Assembly (NCBI GenBank): GCA_035570235.1
Contig: DATMML010000051.1
Coordinates: forward strand, 892-64,891
Direction: 5' to 3'
DNA from: Vicinamibacteria bacterium
GTDB taxonomy: Bacteria > Acidobacteriota > Vicinamibacteria > Fen-336
Length of the DNA: 64,000 nt
Below the pieces are notes generated by a model. The model was not told where the DNA came from, did not search any database, and saw only the letters and a program-made list of their open reading frames with translations. The position numbers and the translations under genes are program-made. This document shows positions 11,963 through 31,546 of this stretch, piece after piece. Position 1 is the first letter of the stretch. The number at the start of each line of letters is the position of its first letter.

Positions 11963-12763
11963 TCATTCCGGGGCGCCCTCGAACCGCGGCTTGCGCTTCT
12001 CCATGAAAGCAGCGAAGCCCTCGTGGAAGTCGGGGGCCCGCATGAGCTCGGCCTGGACGCGGGCCTCTCGGTCCAACGCGGACTCCAGGTCCAAGTGCAG
12101 CTCCTCGTTTAGGGACTGCTTGGTGGCGGCGAGACCGGCGGCGGGGCCCCGGCGGAGGCGGTCCACGAGAGCGGAGGTCTCCCCGGCCAGGTGTTCCGGC
12201 GCGACCACCCGGTTGTAGAGGCCGATGCGCAGGGCCTCGGAGGCGTCGATGAAGTCTCCCGTCATCAACAGCTCGGTGGCCCGACCCAGGCCCACCACCC
12301 GAGGGAGCAGGTGAGCGGCCCCCATGTCCGCTCCCGCGAGGCCAACCCGCACGAACAGAAAGGCGATGCGGGCGGTGTCGGCGGCCACGCGCAGGTCCGC
12401 GGCCAGGGCAATGGCCGCGCCGGCCCCGGCCACCGTTCCGTTCAGGGAGGCCACGATGGGCCGGGGGAGGGCGCGCATGGCCCGGATCAGGTCGCAGGTG
12501 AGTTGGGTGAACTCCAGCAGGCCCTTGGCGTCCCGGTGCAGGAGGTCGCCGATGATCTCCTTGACATCCCCGCCCGTGCAAAAGGCCCGCCCGGTCCCGG
12601 TCAGGACCACGACCCGAACGTCCTTGCGGTCGGCCAAGGCGCGAAAGGTGTCGGTCAGCTCCCGGTAGACTTGAAAGGTGAGCGAGTTCAAGGTCTCGGG
12701 TCGGTTGAGGGTGAGCGTGGCCACTCCGCCCGACTCCCCGTAAAGGAAGCTCCGGGTCTTCAT
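11963..12763 (-). CDS. Enoyl-CoA hydratase/isomerase (crotonase) family protein
   Basis: VVVLTGTGRAFCTGGDVKE and NGTVAGAGAAIALAADLRVA oxyanion-hole motifs. Confidence 0.9.
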   Translation of the reverse strand: MKTRSFLYGESGGVATLTLNRPETLNSLTFQVYRELTDTFRALADRKDVRVVVLTGTGRAFCTGGDVKEIIGDLLHRDAKGLLEFTQLTCDLIRAMRALPRPIVASLNGTVAGAGAAIALAADLRVAADTARIAFLFVRVGLAGADMGAAHLLPRVVGLGRATELLMTGDFIDASEALRIGLYNRVVAPEHLAGETSALVDRLRRGPAAGLAATKQSLNEELHLDLESALDREARVQAELMRAPDFHEGFAAFMEKRKPRFEGAPE

Positions 12764-13206
12764 GCCTGACCGTCCAGGGCGTGGATCAGGCAGCGAAGGG
12801 CTTCGCGCAGACGGGTAAGGTCGGGGGCGGAGACGGGGGCGAGGACGAGCTCCAGATCCCGTCGGTGACGAGGGATGGCCTGCTCCATCACTCGGTGTCC
12901 GCGGGAGGTGAGGCGGACCCGGACCGCCCGCCGGTCCTCGGGTACGGGCCGTCGCTCCACCAGCCGTCGGCGGGCCAGGCGGTCCACGATGCCGGTGACG
13001 TTCCCCGCCGTGACCAGGAGTTCGCGGGTGAGCTCACCGGGGGTCATGCCCGGAGGCCGGCGGTAGAGCTGGGCCAGCACGTCGAACTGGGGCAGGGTCA
13101 GATGCTGGGGGATGGTCCGCCGGACGCGCGGCAGCATCAGACCGTGGGCTTTGAGCAAGCGCAGCCAGACGGAGACGGCCAGGCCCGGGCCGGGGGTCGT
13201 CTTCAT
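12760..13206 (-). CDS. MarR-family transcriptional regulator
   Basis: LTLPQFDVLAQLY...MTPGELTRELLVTAGNVTGIVDRLARRRLVERRPVPEDRRAVRVRLT winged-HTH. 4-nt overlaps with both neighbours. Confidence 0.85.
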   Translation of the reverse strand: MKTTPGPGLAVSVWLRLLKAHGLMLPRVRRTIPQHLTLPQFDVLAQLYRRPPGMTPGELTRELLVTAGNVTGIVDRLARRRLVERRPVPEDRRAVRVRLTSRGHRVMEQAIPRHRRDLELVLAPVSAPDLTRLREALRCLIHALDGQA

Positions 13207-13598
13207 ATGAGGGCCACCGCCTCGATCTCCACCCGGGCGTCGTCCTCCAAAAGCGACTTCACCTCCACCAGCGTCATGGCCGGGAAGTGCTTGCCCATCC
13301 GATGTCGGTAGGCCTCGCCGATCGCCTTTGCACGGTCCCGGTACTCCTGCTTGTTCGTAACGTAGAGGACGAGCCGGGCCACCGACTCCGGCCGTCCCCC
13401 CGCGGCCCAGACCACGTCCAGTACGTTGTCGAGGGCCTGCGCGAACTGGGCGACGAGGTCGTCGGAGACCAGGTGTCCTCCGCGGTTCCAGCCGATCTGC
13501 CCGGCCACGAACAATAGTTCGCCCGTGCCTTTCATCCCGTTGCTATAGCCGCGGGGCGGGGCCAGGGACTCGGGATTGATGGGGGAGAGAAGGGGCAT
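13203..13598 (-). CDS. RidA/YjgF-family reactive-intermediate deaminase
   Basis: From ATG 13598: MPLLSPINPESLAPPRGYSNGMK...LFVAGQIG...VEIEAVA. ATGA overlap with the SDR stop. The 207-aa ORF in the track is an upstream over-extension. Confidence 0.85.
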   Translation of the reverse strand: MPLLSPINPESLAPPRGYSNGMKGTGELLFVAGQIGWNRGGHLVSDDLVAQFAQALDNVLDVVWAAGGRPESVARLVLYVTNKQEYRDRAKAIGEAYRHRMGKHFPAMTLVEVKSLLEDDARVEIEAVALI

Positions 13599-14371
13599 CA
13601 GACCACCGTGCCGCCATCCACGTTGAGGCCCTGGCCGGTAATGCCCCGCGCCTCCTCCCCGCACAGGAAGAGGGCGAGGGCGGCCACCTCTTCCGCGCTC
13701 ACCATCCGCTTCTGGGGGCTCATCTCCTCTAGCTTCTTCCGCACCTCGCCATTGGACAGGCCCGTCTTCCCCGCGATGCGCGTTATCCCCTGCTCGGTCA
13801 TGGAGGTGTCCACATAGCCGGGGCAAATGGCATTGACCGTCACCCCGCTTAGCGCCATCTCCAGGGCCGCCACCTTAGTGAGCCCGAGCAGACCGTGCTT
13901 GCTGGCGGTATAGGCGGCGATGTAGGGCATGGCCGACTTGCCGGCGATGGAGGCAATGTTGATGACGCGACCCCAGCCCCTGCGTGCCATCTCGGGCAGG
14001 GCCTCGCGCAGGCAGAAGAAGGGGCCGCTCAGGTTGACGGCCAGGACCGCGCCCCAGGTCTCGTCGGAGGTCTTGACCAGGGGCGCGGAGGGCGCGATGC
14101 CCGCGCCATTGACCAGGATGTCGAGGGGGCCCAGAGCCTGACGCGCGCTCTTGAACATCGCGCGCACGTCCTCCGCTTGGCCCACGTCGGCCGCGATGGC
14201 GTGCGCTCGTGCCCCGAGGCGGAGGGCCTCCTCCGCCACCGCTTCGACCTCCGCCCGCGTGCGGGCCGCCACCGCCACCTCTACCCCCGCGCGGGCCAGA
14301 GCCAGGGCGGTGGCCCGGCCGATACCCCGCCCCCCGCCCGTCACCAGCGCCCGCCTGCCGACCAAGCCCAT
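13598..14371 (-). CDS. Short-chain dehydrogenase/reductase (3-oxoacyl/3-hydroxyacyl type)
   Basis: ALVTGGGRGIG, NGAG, YIAAYTASKHG (YxxxK), PGYVDT. Start taken at ATG 14371 (MGLVGRRALVTGG). Confidence 0.9.
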   Translation of the reverse strand: MGLVGRRALVTGGGRGIGRATALALARAGVEVAVAARTRAEVEAVAEEALRLGARAHAIAADVGQAEDVRAMFKSARQALGPLDILVNGAGIAPSAPLVKTSDETWGAVLAVNLSGPFFCLREALPEMARRGWGRVINIASIAGKSAMPYIAAYTASKHGLLGLTKVAALEMALSGVTVNAICPGYVDTSMTEQGITRIAGKTGLSNGEVRKKLEEMSPQKRMVSAEEVAALALFLCGEEARGITGQGLNVDGGTVV

Positions 14372-14412
14372 GATGCTTGAAATGTAAAGTAAAGTTGGGG
14401 CCCAAGTCAAGG

Positions 14413-14433
14413 CGCGGGCGTATAATGCCCGCG
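14413..14433. promoter_or_regulatory. Perfect 7-bp inverted repeat flanking a TATAAT box (CGCGGGC-gTATAAT-GCCCGCG) in the SDR/peroxiredoxin divergent region
   Basis: Read directly at 14413-14433. It lies 13 nt upstream of the peroxiredoxin ATG and abuts the GGGAGGA RBS. I found no convincing -35 at 16-18 nt spacing. Confidence 0.4.
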
Positions 14434-14445
14434 GGAGGACTGGCC

Positions 14446-14883
14446 ATGCTGGAGATAGGGGCGGTGGCCCCGGACTTCGAGGTGGAGGATCACACGGGGA
14501 AGAGGGTTCGCCTCTCCCAGTATCGGGGGCGCCCGGTCGTGCTCTGGTTCTACCCCAAGGCCGACACCCCCGGTTGAACCGCCGAGGGTTGCGGGTTCCG
14601 CGACCGAATCAAGCAGTACGAGGAGCGCGGCGTCCAGATTCTGGGCATCAGCTTTGACACCGTTCCCGACAACGCCGCCTTCGCCAAGAAGTTCGAGTTC
14701 AACTTCCCCCTTCTCTGCGACACCACCCGCTCGGTGGGCCTCGCCTATGGGGCCTGCGACGACGCGACCGCCCCCACCGCCCGCCGGATCAGCTACCTGA
14801 TCGGGCCGGATGGCCGGGTGAAGAAGGCTTACCCGAAGGTGAACGCCGCTGCCCATCCCGAGGAGATCCTGAAGGATCTCTGA
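14446..14883 (+). CDS. bcp: BCP/PrxQ-type peroxiredoxin with in-frame TGA (predicted selenocysteine) at the peroxidatic position, codon 44
   Basis: RBS GGGAGGA then ATG 14446. Sequence is MLEIGAVAPDFEVEDHTGKRVRLSQYRGRPVVLWFYPKADTPG-TGA(14575-14577)-TAEGCGFRDRIKQYEERGVQILGISFDTVPDNAAFAKKFEFNFPLLCD...ISYLIGPDGRVKKAYPKV. The canonical motif is FYPKDxTPGCTxExCxFRD. The frame stays open to TGA 14881-14883. Confidence 0.85.
14587..14605 (+). ncRNA. Candidate bacterial SECIS hairpin downstream of the recoded UGA
   Basis: GGUUGCG-GGUUC-CGCGACC forms a 7-bp stem (one G-U) with a 5-nt loop containing GU, starting 9 nt after the UGA. An alternative fold at 14576-14598 (GAACC.GC / GC.GGGUUC) includes the UGA in the stem. 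Confidence 0.4.
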
Positions 14884-25767: not shown

Positions 25768-26403
25768 ATGCGGAGGGGCAGTGGTCAGCCGGGACGCAGC
25801 CGGCAACGCCGAGTCGAAATCCTGAGAAGCGCGGCCGCCGCTTTCCGTCGGCGCGGCTACCACGGGGCCAGCGTGGGGGAGATCGCCCGCGACCTCCGCA
25901 TGACCAAGGGGAGCCTCTATTACTACTTCAAGAACAAGGAGGAGATCCTCTACTTTTGCCATGACTACTCGCTCGACATCCTCCTCGACCTCCTGGCCCG
26001 GGTGGAGAGGGAGACGCGCTCCCCGGACGAGCGCCTGCGTCAGCTCATCGTGTCCTTCGTGCACATGATCATCGACGAGCTGCAGGGAACCGCCCTCACC
26101 ATGGACCTGCAAGCCCTCTCTCCGCGGCTGCTACGGAAGGTGATCGCCAAGCGCGACCTGTTTGACCGCGGCGTCCGGCGCGTCTTGAAGGAAGGGATGG
26201 ACCGCGGACTCTTCGTTTCCGGCGACCCGAAGCTATTGACCTTTGCCATTCTGGGGGCGGTGAACTGGATCACGCGCTGGTTCGATCCCCGGGGCCCCGC
26301 CCGCTCGGAGGAGATCGCTCAGGCTTTCGCCGACTACTTGCTGGCCGGCTTGCTCCGGCCCGCCGCCGCGCGCGGACGCTCCCCCCGGCGCGCCCTCGCG
26401 TGA
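25768..26403 (+). CDS. TetR/AcrR-family transcriptional regulator
   Basis: ILRSAAAAFRRRGYHGASVGEIARDLRMTKGSLYYYFKNKEEIL HTH. Confidence 0.9.
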   Translation: MRRGSGQPGRSRQRRVEILRSAAAAFRRRGYHGASVGEIARDLRMTKGSLYYYFKNKEEILYFCHDYSLDILLDLLARVERETRSPDERLRQLIVSFVHMIIDELQGTALTMDLQALSPRLLRKVIAKRDLFDRGVRRVLKEGMDRGLFVSGDPKLLTFAILGAVNWITRWFDPRGPARSEEIAQAFADYLLAGLLRPAAARGRSPRRALA

Positions 26404-28580
26404 GGGTCAAAGAGGCCTTCGCGAACCTGCTCCTGAGCGCGCTCACCGTCCTCCTGTTCGTGGGGGGGGCCGAAGGAGTCTGCCGCCTCCTCGAGAGGGG
26501 GCGGCCGGCGGCCCCGCGGGCGGCCGCTTACATCACGGACTGGAACTGGGAGGGGGACTTCTATACGGTCAAGTCCACCGCCGCGGGCTGGCCTCCTTGG
26601 GAAGACTACAACAGCGACGGGCTGCGGGACCGGGAACGGGCGGTGGAGAAGCCGACGGGAGTGCGGCGGCTGATCTGCCTCGGGGACAGCACCACCCTCG
26701 GTTGGGGGATCCGTCCGCAGGAGGCCTACCCCCAGGTGCTCCAGGACCTGCTCGAGTCGAAGGGGGAGCGGACCGAGGTCTTCAACCTGGCCCTGGGTGG
26801 CTGGTCCACCCGCCAAGAGCTGATCGCTTACCGCCGCATCGCGCGCAAGTACCGGCCGGACGAGGTTCTGATCGGGGTATGCCTGAACGACGTTCCCGAA
26901 ATGCAGAACAACCTGAGCCGCCCCCCCGCTTGGCTGGCCGCGATTCACGAGCGCTCCGCCCTCGTGCGGCGCCTCGTTCGAGCCCAGGACCGAGAGATCG
27001 CGGATGTGGAGGAGCTCTTCACGCATAAGGACTCACCCAAGGTACGCGAGGCTTTCGGGCGCATGTTCGCCGACATGCGCATCCTGCGCGATGAGGTGCG
27101 GGCGGACGGGGCCACTTTCGCGGTCCTCATCTTCCCTTTTCGCCTCCAAGTCCTTCCCGGTGCGCCACCCCCTACCGCCCAACGGACGATCGTGGACTTC
27201 TGCCGCACGGAGGGAATTCCCGTGCTCGATCTCCTGCCCGCGCTTCGCCCCGCGGGGGAGTCCGCCTTCATCGACTACGACCACTTCAGTCCCGCCGGGG
27301 CCCGCCTCGTGGCCGAGCAGATCCTGGCCTCTGGCCTCTTGGCGGAGTCGGGCTCGTTGCCCCCCCGTGACACCCCCGCCTCTCTGCCTCCGAACCCCAG
27401 CCAGGCCCTTCCCGCTCTCCTCGTCGACCTTCGCAGCGGGAACGAAAGGAGTCGGCTCGAAGCCGCCCGGGCTCTGGGCCAGATGGGGGCGCAGGCCAAG
27501 GCCGCCGAATCCTCGCTGATTGGTCTCCTCGACGACCCGAGCCCGCGCGTGCGCGTGGCTGCGACATGGGCGGTGGCCCGGCTCCGGCCGCTCCCCGCGG
27601 CCGCCCTCGCCGGCCTCCTCCGTCGGCTCCAGGATCCCGCGCCGGGCGTGCGCGCCGGCGCGGCCCGGGCCCTCGGGGAGATGGGCGATGCGGGCAAGCC
27701 CGCGTTGCTGCCCCTCGTGGAGCGGCTGCGCGACGAGGACGAGACGGTCCGCGCACGGGCGGGGGAGAGCCTGTCCGAGATCGGGCCCGACACCGAGGGC
27801 TGCCGGCGAGCGCTCGTCAGCCTCCTCGCTGATAGCACTGCTCCCGGGCGCGCGGAGGCGGCGGGGGCGCTGGGCCGGCTGGGGCCGGGGGCCCTGGACG
27901 CCGTGCCTGTCCTCAGTTCTGCCCTCGAAGACACGCGCGAGGCGGTGCGTGGGCGCGCGGCCTGGGCCCTGGGTGAGATCGGCCCCGGAGCGTGGAGGGC
28001 GGTGCCCGCCCTCCTGGCCGCGTTCCGGGATCCGGGCATCCGCTGGCGGGTGGCCGACGCCTTTGGCGGCATCGGCCCCGGGGCGGCGGCGGCGGTGCCC
28101 GACCTTATGGCCGCCACGAAGGACGAGAGCAGCAACGTGCGTTGGCGCTCGATCCAGGCCCTGGGCCGGATCGGTGCCCCGGCCGAACGGGCTACGCCCA
28201 CCCTCGTGGAAGCTCTCGGCGATCCTGGCCCCAACGTCCGTCTGGGCGCACTGACCGCCCTGGCCCAAATCGGCGCCGACCCCGCCGTGCTCCTTTCCGC
28301 CCACGAGCGTGTGCTCGCCGACCCCGACACCCGTGTGCGCAGCGAGGCGGTGAACGGTCTGGGGCGGATGGGTCCCCGCGGCCGACCGGCGGCGGGCGCC
28401 CTCGCGCAGCGCCTGCGGGATGAGGATCCTGGCGTGCGCGCCCGGGCCGCCCGGGCGCTGGGCCGCCTGGGCAAGCTTCCTCCCGCGGTGGTCGCGGCGC
28501 TCGCCGCCGCGCGGAGCGACCCCGACGGGGCGGTTCGCGACGAGGCGGAAAAGGCGCTCCGCAAGGCGGGGGTAGGGTGA
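26400..28580 (+). CDS. Membrane-anchored SGNH/GDSL hydrolase fused to about 11 PBS-lyase-type HEAT repeats
   Basis: GTG 26400 overlaps the TetR stop (GTGA). N-terminal TM. RLICLGDSTTLGWG (GDS block), GVCLNDV, DYDHFSP. From about 27400 there are ~31-aa repeats such as DPSPRVRVAATWAVARL, DEDETVRARAGESLSEIG, DESSNVRWRSIQALGRIG. Confidence 0.8.
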   Translation: MRVKEAFANLLLSALTVLLFVGGAEGVCRLLERGRPAAPRAAAYITDWNWEGDFYTVKSTAAGWPPWEDYNSDGLRDRERAVEKPTGVRRLICLGDSTTLGWGIRPQEAYPQVLQDLLESKGERTEVFNLALGGWSTRQELIAYRRIARKYRPDEVLIGVCLNDVPEMQNNLSRPPAWLAAIHERSALVRRLVRAQDREIADVEELFTHKDSPKVREAFGRMFADMRILRDEVRADGATFAVLIFPFRLQVLPGAPPPTAQRTIVDFCRTEGIPVLDLLPALRPAGESAFIDYDHFSPAGARLVAEQILASGLLAESGSLPPRDTPASLPPNPSQALPALLVDLRSGNERSRLEAARALGQMGAQAKAAESSLIGLLDDPSPRVRVAATWAVARLRPLPAAALAGLLRRLQDPAPGVRAGAARALGEMGDAGKPALLPLVERLRDEDETVRARAGESLSEIGPDTEGCRRALVSLLADSTAPGRAEAAGALGRLGPGALDAVPVLSSALEDTREAVRGRAAWALGEIGPGAWRAVPALLAAFRDPGIRWRVADAFGGIGPGAAAAVPDLMAATKDESSNVRWRSIQALGRIGAPAERATPTLVEALGDPGPNVRLGALTALAQIGADPAVLLSAHERVLADPDTRVRSEAVNGLGRMGPRGRPAAGALAQRLRDEDPGVRARAARALGRLGKLPPAVVAALAAARSDPDGAVRDEAEKALRKAGVG

Positions 28581-28659: not shown

Positions 28660-29163
28660 GTGCGCATGGAGAAGATTCGGGTCCGTCTCAAGGTGAACGG
28701 GGAGGACCGGGAGGTCCTGGCCGTTGTCCACCACACCCTTCTGGAAGTGCTCCGGGAAGAGATGGGCCTCGCCGGTACCAAGCATGGCTGTGAACTGGGG
28801 GAGTGTGGCACCTGCACCGTCCTCCTGGACGGAAGGCCCGTCCTCTCTTGCCTCACCCTGCCCGTGGAGTGTGCGGGGCGGCAGGTCACGACGGTAGAGG
28901 GCTTGGCCGAGCGAGGCGTGCTCCACCCGCTGCAGCAGGCCTTCATCGAGCTCGGTGCCGCGCAGTGTGGGTACTGCACGCCCGGGTTCCTGCTCGTGGC
29001 CGAGAGGCTGCTCCGAGAGAACCCTCATCCCTCCCGGCCCGAGATCGCAGAGGCCCTCGCCGGCAACCTCTGTCGGTGCACGGGGTACTTGAAGATATTT
29101 GAAGCGGTCGAGCTCGCGGCGGCGCGGATGCGTGACCAGGCGGGGGAGGCGGTTCGTGCCTGA
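28660..29163 (+). CDS. [2Fe-2S]-binding small subunit of a xanthine-dehydrogenase-family molybdoenzyme (HcrC/CoxS-like)
   Basis: CELGECGTCTV...LSCL and CGYCTPG...CRCTGY cluster motifs. The start is GTG 28660 or ATG 28666. Confidence 0.9.
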   Translation: MRMEKIRVRLKVNGEDREVLAVVHHTLLEVLREEMGLAGTKHGCELGECGTCTVLLDGRPVLSCLTLPVECAGRQVTTVEGLAERGVLHPLQQAFIELGAAQCGYCTPGFLLVAERLLRENPHPSRPEIAEALAGNLCRCTGYLKIFEAVELAAARMRDQAGEAVRA

Positions 29164-31546
29164 GGAGACACGCCGCGATCTCCGGGTGGTCGGCCAACCG
29201 CTGCCCAAGGTGGACGCCGCGGCCAAGGTCACCGGCCAGACGCTCTTCGCGGATGACGTCGAGCTACCCCGCATGGCCTACGCCAAGCTCTTGCGCTCGC
29301 CGCATCCCCACGCGCGCATACGCAAGCTCGACGCGTCCAAAGCGGCCGCGCTCCCCGGCGTCCTCGCCACCCTGGTGGGGACCGAACTACCCATTCCATT
29401 CGGCATCTTGCCCGTCAGTCAAGACGAGCACGCCCTAGCCATAGATAAGGTCCGTTTCGTGGGCGATCCGGTGGCGGCGGTGGCCGCCGTCGACGAGGAG
29501 ACGGCGGAGGCGGCCTGTCGGCTGGTGGAGGTGGACTACGAGGTCCTGCCCGACCTCATGTCCATGGAGGAAGCCCTGGCCCGACCCGAGGCCCGCATCC
29601 ACGAGTACGGGCCGCGGGGCAACGTCCACAAGGAGGTCTCCTTCGATTTCGGCGACGTCGAGGAAGGCTTTCGCGAGGCCGAATACGTCCGCGAGGATAC
29701 GTTCTACTTCGAGGGAAACACCCACCTGCCGATGGAGCAGCACGCGGCCGTCGGCTCGTTCGGGCCCGACGGCAAGCTCACGCTCTGGTCCTCCACCCAG
29801 ACCCCGCATTATGTCCACCGCGCGGTGGCCCGGGTGTTAGGGATGTCGCCCGCGCACGTGAGGGTCATTGCCTGTCCGAACGGGGGCGGCTTCGGGGGCA
29901 AGAGTGACCCCTTCGGCCACGAGATCGTAGTGGGCAAGCTCTCCATGAAGACGGGCCGGCCCGTCAAGATCACCCTCACCCGAGAGGAGGTCTTCTACTG
30001 CCACCGCGGCCGGCACCCCGTGTCGATGTGGATGAAGACCGGGCTCAAGAGAGACGGCACCATCACCGCCATGCACTTCCGCTCCGCCCTCGACGGGGGA
30101 GGCTACGGCAGCTACGGTGTGGCCAGCCTCTACTACACGGGAGCCCTGCAGACCGTGACCTACCGTATCCCCCGCTACAAGTTTGAAGGAGTGCGCGTCT
30201 TCACCAACAAGCCCCCCTGCGGTCCCAAGCGGGGCCACGGCACGCCCCAGCCACGCTACGCCCTGGAGTGCCACATCGACAAGTTCTGCCACGACCTGGG
30301 CCTCGACCCCGCGGAGTGGCGGCTGCGCCACACTCTCGCCCCCGGCACCATTACCGCGAACCAGATGCAGGTGAAGACCATCGGCCTCCGGGAGTGCCTG
30401 GAGCGGGTGATCACGCGAAGCGGCTACCGTGAGAAACGGGGCAAACTCGGACCCGGTCGGGGCATTGCCCTCGCGGGCTCGGCCTACATCAGCGGCGCGG
30501 GTCTTCCCATCTATTGGAACGCGATGCCCCACTCGGGCGTTCAGATCAAGGTGGACCGCGGCGGGGGGGTGGCCGTCTTTTGCGGCTCCACCGATATCGG
30601 GCAGGGCTCCGACTCGGTGCTCGCTTACATCGTGGCCGAGGAACTCGGCATCGAGCCCGCGGATGTCCGGGTCGTCACCGCCGATACCGACCTCACGCCG
30701 GTAGACCTCGGCTCCTACTCTTCCCGGGTCACCCTCATGACCGGCAACGCCACCCTCGAAGCCGTGCGCAAGGTGCGCAAGTTGATCCTCGAGGCCGCCG
30801 CCCGCAAGCTGGAGGTGCCGGTCGAGCGCTTGCTCTGCGCCGCCCGCCGGATATGGGATGCTCAAGAACCCGCCCGGGGGCTGCCCTTCGCGGAGGCCGT
30901 GGTCTTGGCGGAGGGCGAGCACGGCACCCTGGGGGCGGTCGGCTCCTATAAGCCACCCCGAAGCGTGGCCCGCTGGAAAGGGGCGGGGGTCGGCCCTACG
31001 CCGACCTACTCGTATTCCGCAGCCGCGGTCGAGCTCTCAGCCGACCGCGAGACGGGACTCATCCGCGTGGACAAGGTCTGGATCGCGCACGACGTGGGGA
31101 AGTCGATCAACCCCCTGCTCGTCATCGGCCAGGTCGAAGGCTCGGTCTACATGGGCCTGGGTGAGGTTCTGATGGAGGAGCAGGTCTTCCGGAAGGGCCG
31201 CCACAAGATCCCTTCCATGCTCGAGTACAAGAGCCCGACCACCCTGGAGATGCCGCCCGTGGAGTCGATTCTGATCGAGACCCTTGACCCCGAGGGCCCC
31301 TACGGGGCCAAGGAATGTGGCCAGGGGCCGCTGCTGCCCGTGATCCCCGCCGTGGCCAACGCTCTCTTCGAGGCTCTGGGGGTGCGGGTAGACGAGGTCC
31401 CGATCACTCCGGAGAAGGTGCTGGCCGCCCTCGAAGGTCGCTACCGACCTCCCCGCATGCCGGCGTTCCGGTACCCGGAGACGGTGGTGGTTCCACCCCT
31501 GGAGCCCGCGACGCCCGCCGCCGTTCCCGAAGGGGTGCGCACATGA
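29156..31546 (+). CDS. Molybdopterin-binding large subunit of a xanthine-dehydrogenase-family enzyme (HcrA-like)
   Basis: GTG 29156 overlaps the small-subunit stop. VGQPLPKVDAAAKVTGQTLFADD, GGGFGGK, ...ECGQGPLLPVIPAVANA. Confidence 0.9.
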   Translation: MPEETRRDLRVVGQPLPKVDAAAKVTGQTLFADDVELPRMAYAKLLRSPHPHARIRKLDASKAAALPGVLATLVGTELPIPFGILPVSQDEHALAIDKVRFVGDPVAAVAAVDEETAEAACRLVEVDYEVLPDLMSMEEALARPEARIHEYGPRGNVHKEVSFDFGDVEEGFREAEYVREDTFYFEGNTHLPMEQHAAVGSFGPDGKLTLWSSTQTPHYVHRAVARVLGMSPAHVRVIACPNGGGFGGKSDPFGHEIVVGKLSMKTGRPVKITLTREEVFYCHRGRHPVSMWMKTGLKRDGTITAMHFRSALDGGGYGSYGVASLYYTGALQTVTYRIPRYKFEGVRVFTNKPPCGPKRGHGTPQPRYALECHIDKFCHDLGLDPAEWRLRHTLAPGTITANQMQVKTIGLRECLERVITRSGYREKRGKLGPGRGIALAGSAYISGAGLPIYWNAMPHSGVQIKVDRGGGVAVFCGSTDIGQGSDSVLAYIVAEELGIEPADVRVVTADTDLTPVDLGSYSSRVTLMTGNATLEAVRKVRKLILEAAARKLEVPVERLLCAARRIWDAQEPARGLPFAEAVVLAEGEHGTLGAVGSYKPPRSVARWKGAGVGPTPTYSYSAAAVELSADRETGLIRVDKVWIAHDVGKSINPLLVIGQVEGSVYMGLGEVLMEEQVFRKGRHKIPSMLEYKSPTTLEMPPVESILIETLDPEGPYGAKECGQGPLLPVIPAVANALFEALGVRVDEVPITPEKVLAALEGRYRPPRMPAFRYPETVVVPPLEPATPAAVPEGVRT

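Follow-up and report, generated by a model that had tools for sequence, protein, structure and literature searches.

A predicted selenocysteine-containing peroxiredoxin of the BCP/PrxQ subfamily, with a SECIS-like hairpin in its active-site codons, in an uncultivated Vicinamibacteria bacterium

Results

Gene anatomy and reading frame

The subject of this work is one gene in a 64,000-nucleotide stretch of DNA from a Vicinamibacteria bacterium (contig DATMML010000051.1; the whole stretch is called the window below), the frame of which carries a TGA codon inside an otherwise complete peroxiredoxin. ATG 14446 opens the frame, the in-frame TGA at 14575-14577 forms codon 44, and from there the frame is open to a terminal TGA at 14881-14883; the translation reads ...VVLWFYPKADTPG*TAEGCGFRDRIK...ILKDL*. 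The original prediction, made from the DNA letters, had described an open reading frame (ORF) that ends at the TGA and a same-frame continuation beyond it, and both this layout and the translation quoted for it were reproduced exactly. In the program-made ORF list the gene appears as two pieces, a short one from the N-terminal part and a C-terminal one of 49 aa starting from GTG 14734. Homologues in the databases are 145-147 aa long and share their start Met with the window product. The segment 14446-14883 is a single gene; its product is a predicted thiol/selenol peroxidase with the thioredoxin fold and belongs to the BCP/PrxQ subfamily.

For comparison, 80 related loci were collected by a scan of species-representative genomes, giving 81 sequences with the window. 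They come from Acidobacteriota (Vicinamibacteria, 'Marinacidobacterales', Blastocatellia, Thermoanaerobaculia and Polarisedimenticolia), from Myxococcota (Archangium, Myxococcus, Pyxidicoccus, Hyalangium and Corallococcus) and from a few other phyla. The features of the gene are as follows, Sec standing for selenocysteine and SECIS for selenocysteine insertion sequence.

14433..14439, + strand: Shine-Dalgarno-like GGGAGGA, 6 nt 5' of the ATG, read from the sequence; putative in function
14446..14883, + strand: coding sequence of the BCP/PrxQ-type peroxiredoxin, predicted to contain Sec; 145 codons, Met1-Leu145, with predicted Sec44 and its own stop TGA at 14881-14883
14554..14568, + strand: codons Pro37-Thr41, part of the active-site motif PxxxTxxU; Pro37 and Thr41 occur in all 81 aligned sequences
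14575..14577, + strand: in-frame TGA (codon 44), predicted to encode Sec as the peroxidatic residue; TGA in 66/80 relatives and identical in an independent assembly
14587..14605, + strand: predicted bacterial SECIS hairpin GGUUGCGG-GUU-CCGCGACC, 10 nt past the TGA and inside codons 48-53 (Gly-Cys-Gly-Phe-Arg-Asp)
14590..14592, + strand: UGC codon of the resolving Cys49, identified by alignment, 5 residues past Sec44 and within the 5' arm of the hairpin
14734..14883, + strand: spurious 49-aa ORF from an internal GTG, present in the ORF list and in pipeline gene calls; actually the C-terminal third of the peroxiredoxin
14785..14787, + strand: codon of Arg114, the conserved active-site Arg of peroxiredoxins, invariant in 81/81 sequences and aligned with the conserved Arg of PDB 5enu

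Family placement and active site

When Cys was put at codon 44 for the searches, the 145-aa conceptual product matched Pfam AhpC-TSA (PF00578) with E=2.9e-36 and 124.6 bits (cutoff 26) over profile positions 1-123 of 124. Full-length alignments to BCP/PrxQ proteins of known structure reached E=1.9e-21, and that to E. coli BCP gave 36% identity at E=3e-34. The alignments with the structures 2ywn and 5epf and with E. coli BCP match codon 44 to the peroxidatic Cys and Cys49 to the resolving Cys, an arrangement of the type known from E. coli BCP and Xanthomonas PrxQ. The E. coli counterparts are residues 46 and 51 when Met1 is counted, that is Cys45 and Cys50 without the initiator Met. Thus the claims that the BCP/PrxQ fold is complete and has the TGA precisely at its peroxidatic Cys, and that Cys49 reproduces the Cys45/Cys50 layout of E. 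coli BCP, are borne out by profile, structure and sequence comparisons alike. E. coli BCP (thiol peroxidase, b2480) and the proteins of known structure 2ywn, 5epf, 3gkk and 5iiz share with the window product the motif FYPKxxTPGC-TxxxC-xxRD, the spacing of five residues between peroxidatic and resolving Cys, and the conserved Arg, but they have Cys at the peroxidatic position where the window gene has TGA. With Pro37, Thr41 and Arg114 all invariant, the canonical peroxiredoxin active site is complete.

The best NCBIfam matches of the product are PrxQ and BCP. It reaches neither the BCP equivalog NF006960 (106.6 bits, cutoff 140) nor the PrxQ equivalog NF053650 (113.7 bits, cutoff 260), and is therefore a relative within the BCP subfamily rather than an orthologue of E. 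coli-type BCP or of Deinococcus-type PrxQ. Two other kinds of selenoprotein were considered and rejected. A PrxU-type Sec-peroxiredoxin is ruled out by the score against NF040737, 54.7 bits for a cutoff of 270. A 'Prx-like' selenoprotein is ruled out by the motif: the UxxC/UxxU signature of the Prx-like thiol:disulfide oxidoreductases is absent from the window product, which reads TPGU-TAEG-C (TxxU, with Cys at +5).

The TGA is genuine and is read differently only at codon 44

A TGA in the middle of a gene might be a sequencing or assembly error for TGC or TGT, or an ordinary sense codon in an organism where TGA specifies Trp or Gly. The error is contradicted by an independent ENA assembly (ERZ27253551, a 45-kb contig), in which the same locus shows 2 mismatches in 22,166 nt and the gene is identical, TGA included, and by the 66 other loci with TGA at this codon. 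A JGI metagenome contig of 163 kb contains the same gene set.

As to an altered code, some annotation pipelines have evidently chosen one in which TGA means Trp: among 120 full-length database homologues, 12 (P0001, P0015, P0039 and nine others) are spelled with Trp at the catalytic position, because the TGA was translated under that code, whereas 106 have Cys there. A single homologue (P0033) has Leu at this position. Trp would abolish catalysis at a peroxidatic position, and such spellings are annotation artefacts that hide selenoproteins. Moreover, TGA is the commonest stop in the window, ending 31 of the 48 confident ORFs with high GC content at third codon positions (TAG ends 13 and TAA 4), and it is also the terminator of the peroxiredoxin gene itself. 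No convincing further in-frame TGA flanked by coding-like sequence was found in the window, its conserved genes included; the only instances were antisense frames and gene junctions. Since TGA is an ordinary stop both in the neighbours and in the gene itself, the recoding is specific to codon 44, as had been proposed from the stops of neighbouring genes. We consider that error and altered code together have practically no chance of being correct.

Conservation of the TGA across related loci and its exchange with Cys codons

Of the 80 related loci, 66 read TGA at the homologous codon and the other 14 TGC or TGT. A coincidence of this kind would be far outside what chance allows. In all 67 TGA genes, counting that of the window, the frame past the TGA is open for 101-110 codons, and 3' of it the amino acids are conserved and synonymous sites vary freely. 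The downstream part is, judging from this pattern of substitution, translated and under purifying selection. Pairwise identity within the TGA group goes down to 51%, with a median of 61%.

These data bear directly on the simplest reading of the locus, namely a pseudogene or truncated gene in which a nonsense mutation left a 43-residue stub and a decaying downstream frame. It agrees with what gene callers and GenBank report, since they annotate the 43-aa product only. However, it would not account for a TGA kept at such divergence in several phyla with the frames beyond it intact, for synonymous variation around conserved downstream residues, for the invariance of Arg114, which lies past the TGA, or for the presence of four such copies in some genomes. 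Orthologues truncated at this point, named in the original prediction as one outcome that would speak against it, are not what was found: the TGA is there and the frame behind it is nevertheless selected. Conservation of the TGA across loci, together with open and selected downstream frames, therefore excludes sequencing error and leaves the pseudogene effectively refuted, as far as comparative data can do so; we would assign it a very small probability.

The distribution of TGA and TGC is, by the same comparisons, the classic behaviour of a Cys/Sec pair. Orthologues that lie in the same MarR-RidA-SDR gene neighbourhood (SDR, short-chain dehydrogenase) include both TGA forms (L001, L003, L004, L007) and TGC forms (L002, L005), and a neighbour-joining tree requires at least 8 switches between Sec and Cys. 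It had been stated that Sec-peroxiredoxins are known but rare. The first half of this holds, the family being a catalogued one; the second does not hold within this clade, where the Sec form accounts for 67 of the 81 sequences, the window included.

The resolving position is less constant than the peroxidatic one. Residue 49 in the 67 Sec forms is Cys in 50, Arg in 12, Lys in 3, Ser in 1 and Ile in 1, so that the resolving Cys is missing from 17 of 67. The TGA loci concerned have Arg (L013, L014, L016-L019, L031, L044, L054, L067, L072, L079), Lys (L056, L060, L063), Ser (L062) or Ile (L064).

Genomes of 'Marinacidobacterales' may carry several TGA copies, from two to four: L016, L018, L022 and L031 in OZ240210.1, L013 and L014 in CBDANW010000003.1, and L017 and L037 in OZ253507.1. 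This points to expansion of the selenoprotein by paralogues in large acidobacterial genomes. Complete genomes with TGA copies include those of Archangium gephyra (NZ_CP102578.1) and of 'Marinacidobacterales' (OZ240210.1, OZ245365.1).

A hairpin specific to the TGA form

A check for a SECIS downstream of the TGA, which had been suggested along with the original prediction, gave a positive result. For bacterial SECIS elements (bSECIS) the limits given by a review of 2026 on prokaryotic selenoproteomes are an apical loop of 3-9 nt, an upper stem of 4-16 bp, a distance of 16-37 nt from the UGA to the loop and a minimum free energy (MFE) of at most -7.5 kcal/mol; the first or second loop nucleotide should be a G, most often with G or U after it (PMC13188914). 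The window hairpin consists of a 5' arm at 14587-14594, a loop at 14595-14597 and a 3' arm at 14598-14605. It has an 8-bp stem and a 3-nt loop, GUU, with G in first place and 17 nt from the UGA, and its MFE is -11.9 kcal/mol alone and -14.3 in 45 nt, which places it within all four limits. The same is true of 63 of the 67 TGA genes, versus only 3 of the 14 Cys genes, and the mean MFE of the homologous 19-nt segment is -10.4 kcal/mol in the former and -1.8 in the latter.

The strongest test of the hairpin is the contrast in synonymous codon usage within the genes. In the TGA genes the six hairpin codons have a normalised synonymous entropy of 0.24, versus 0.73 for 52 other conserved codons, and none of 100,000 random six-codon sets drawn from those other codons was as low. 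The Cys genes give 0.85 for the six codons and 0.82 for 59 other conserved codons. Gly48 is encoded by GGU in 55 of 67 TGA genes, although most of these sequences are GC-rich, as the window is, and Gly50 by GGG in 64 of 67. In the proposed helix 93.5% of alignment cells pair, against 37-50% when the partners are slid.

Two variations of the hairpin were seen. In most of the forms with Arg in place of Cys49 the codon has changed from UGC to CGC, by which a U-G wobble in the stem becomes a C-G pair, so that the structure of the RNA may be coupled to the mechanism of catalysis. In six loci, four with TGA (L056, L060, L063, L064) and two with TGC (L061, L074), the hairpin is replaced by another, GG(A/G)UUC-CGUGAUC-GAAUCC, about 18-40 nt past the codon, with a 6-bp stem, a 7-nt loop having G in second place, and an MFE of about -7.1, just outside the bSECIS threshold. 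Its retention in the two Cys-form genes, which belong to Blastocatellia, suggests a recent conversion from Sec to Cys.

Genomic neighbourhood

Upstream of the peroxiredoxin gene, and divergent from it, lies one group of genes identified by Pfam matches of the called genes.

12760..14371, - strand: genes for a MarR-family regulator, RidA (Ribonuc_L-PSP) and a short-chain dehydrogenase

This neighbourhood is kept in the closest relatives (L001-L005 and L007), whether their orthologue has TGA or TGC. We treat these genes as context, implying no functional link to the peroxidase, although a MarR-family regulator beside a peroxidase gene could suggest redox regulation. In the divergent intergenic region of 75 nt a perfect TATAAT (14421-14426) stands 19 nt before the ATG; a -35 hexamer to go with it could not be recognised. 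On the minus strand the region has a promoter-like site, TTGACT-18-TACATT (14410..14381), that faces the SDR-RidA-MarR genes. Downstream of the peroxiredoxin gene, at 28660-31546, are a [2Fe-2S] ferredoxin-like subunit and a molybdopterin-binding large subunit of the aldehyde oxidase/xanthine dehydrogenase family; before them come a large GDSL-lipase/HEAT-repeat protein and a TetR regulator (26400-28580). These names are Pfam labels only.

Discussion

Which residue is inserted at codon 44

The reading best supported by the sequence comparisons is that codon 44 is very probably decoded as Sec, in a reaction directed by SelB and the SECIS. Several observations weigh against it. Covariation in the hairpin is close to nil, with compensatory changes at one pair only, in three sequences. 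The 66-nt segment folds no better than its shuffles (z = -0.08) in what is GC-rich sequence. Rfam returned no SECIS-type or otherwise meaningful match, either for the window at the gathering threshold or for 14520-14680 at E<=10. Searches by tblastn with E. coli SelA, SelB and SelD found no selA, selB or selD, either in the 64-kb window or in the sequences flanking the 80 loci, and ARAGORN found no tRNA, and hence no tRNA-Sec, in the window; the Sec machinery of the organism is therefore assumed rather than seen, and the selenium in the polypeptide is likewise something that we infer.

Covariation is minimal because the bases of the hairpin hardly vary; being uninformative in this case, it leaves support for an RNA element to come from conservation and from the contrast between TGA and Cys genes. 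Similarly, the fold of the single sequence is unremarkable, and the case for the hairpin is therefore a comparative one. Rfam, to our knowledge, has no model for bacterial SECIS elements of this kind.

One could also imagine that the same hairpin recodes the UGA but that Cys or some other residue is inserted, either by a tRNA(Sec)-like tRNA-Cys(UCA) working with a SelB paralogue or by near-cognate read-through. Such a tRNA-Cys(UCA), of selC* type, and its SelB* have been described in Desulfobacterales and Syntrophobacterales, and unusual allo-tRNAs in Acidobacteria (PMC7609411); the genome is visible here through a 64-kb window, which leaves room for a system of this sort, although nothing specific points to one. 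On the other hand, the selC* system has been reported only from those two deltaproteobacterial orders (PMC7609411), whereas the lineages in question are documented users of Sec with Sec-Prx genes (PMC1794560). The hairpin agrees with the canonical bSECIS model and is similar to the element of E. coli fdhF. A plain TGC would suffice if Cys were the residue needed, and frequent switching between TGA and TGC is the classic pattern of Sec and Cys. We therefore regard insertion of Cys as improbable, if somewhat less so than a pseudogene or an error, and retain Sec as the residue most probably incorporated.

A possible course of translation and catalysis

If Sec is inserted, translation would follow the established bacterial mechanism. 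The hairpin, beginning 10 nt past UGA-44, is predicted to be bound by SelB and would present its G-U-containing apical loop to the C-terminal domain of that protein. SelB-GTP carrying Sec-tRNA(Sec) would then outcompete release factor 2 at UGA-44, Sec would be inserted and a further 101 codons would be translated, and the terminal UGA, which has no such hairpin, would terminate normally. The organism would accordingly be expected to carry selA, selB, selC and selD elsewhere in its genome.

The steps of catalysis can be proposed from the peroxiredoxin family and the BCP cycle. The selenolate of U44, activated by Pro37, Thr41 and Arg114, would attack the peroxide and be converted to a selenenic acid; Cys49, in the same helix, would resolve the latter into an intramolecular selenenylsulfide, to be reduced by thioredoxin or a similar reductant. 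By analogy, then, the window protein may well be a thioredoxin-dependent peroxidase.

Relation to known selenoproteins and SECIS elements

'Peroxiredoxin (Prx)', with the motif TxxU and assigned to COG1225 (Bcp)/PF00578, is a listed family of bacterial selenoproteins (PMC9312934, PMC13188914). A survey of 2006 counted 12 members and five inferred Cys-to-Sec conversions, and documented as Sec users both Acidobacteria and the myxobacterium Anaeromyxobacter, the latter with three Sec-peroxiredoxins (PMC1794560). The family catalogued by Zhang, Gladyshev and co-workers (PMC1794560, PMC9312934, PMC13188914) shares with the window gene its domain, the PxxxTxxU motif and Sec at the peroxidatic position, a bSECIS directly past the UGA, the occurrence of Cys/Sec pairs with frequent interconversion, and a distribution that includes Deltaproteobacteria/Myxococcota and Acidobacteria. 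We see no difference in kind, except that the present copy is unannotated and comes from an uncultivated Vicinamibacteria-like acidobacterium. The assignment of the window gene to the catalogued Prx (COG1225/Bcp, TxxU) selenoproteins is thus supported by sequence on every criterion that could be tested. PrxU of Eubacterium acidaminophilum, which PMC13188914 cites as an experimentally characterised Sec-peroxiredoxin (Sohling et al. 2001), is similar in having Sec at the peroxidatic position but belongs to a different subfamily, with a profile of 233 positions (NF040737).

The nearest familiar counterpart of the hairpin is the SECIS of E. coli fdhF, GGUUGCAGGUCUGCACC, which likewise lies in the coding sequence directly past the UGA. 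Its loop, GGUC, starts 18 nt after the UGA (17 in the window). Both apical loops contain G-U, at distances from the UGA that differ by no more than 1-2 nt. In the upper fdhF stem (L083, codon 140 onward) the 5' arm, GGUUGC, is identical to window positions 14587-14592 although the organisms belong to different phyla. The window stem differs in that its 8 bp form a perfect helix, without a bulged U, under a loop of 3 nt; neither element is covered by Rfam.

State of annotation and significance

It had been anticipated that automated pipelines would record genes of this kind as fragments, and this proved to be so. Two public assemblies both call a 43-aa AhpC-TSA fragment and a 49-aa orphan gene at the locus, and GenBank holds 43-aa stubs from cultured myxobacteria as well: Archangium gephyra (AKJ07223.1), Pyxidicoccus fallax (NMO15949.1) and Myxococcus sp. 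(MBZ4419430.1). Stubs of 43 aa form clusters of 31, 6 and 23 members. An exact-sequence look-up of full-length forms with X at codon 44 found no match. Database entries for the gene and dozens of its orthologues are thus of three kinds: 43-aa stubs, orphan 49-aa ORFs and full-length proteins bearing Trp at the active site.

The novelty of the finding is modest. The family is already catalogued, and what is new is a mis-annotated member of it, neither a new mechanism nor a new family. Nevertheless, correcting such records restores an antioxidant enzyme to the respective proteomes and flags the organisms as users of selenium, and for uncultivated soil Acidobacteriota the gene is a further, well-supported case of Sec use. 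Its SECIS, which is compact, highly conserved and placed inside the coding sequence of an active site, could serve in the study of constraints imposed by RNA structure on protein sequence, and of the chemistry of Sec as compared with Cys peroxiredoxins.

A broader view may be put forward tentatively, although we find it rather doubtful as a whole. This clade of BCP proteins might be mainly selenium-dependent and common to soil phyla that are largely aerobic (Acidobacteriota, Myxococcota and others), having spread perhaps through horizontal transfer of a gene that brings its own SECIS along. The stem of that SECIS consists of the codons for the resolving-Cys segment, so that enzyme mechanism and RNA structure would then co-evolve, and loss of Cys49 would give rise to '1-Sec' peroxiredoxins with a different way of recycling.

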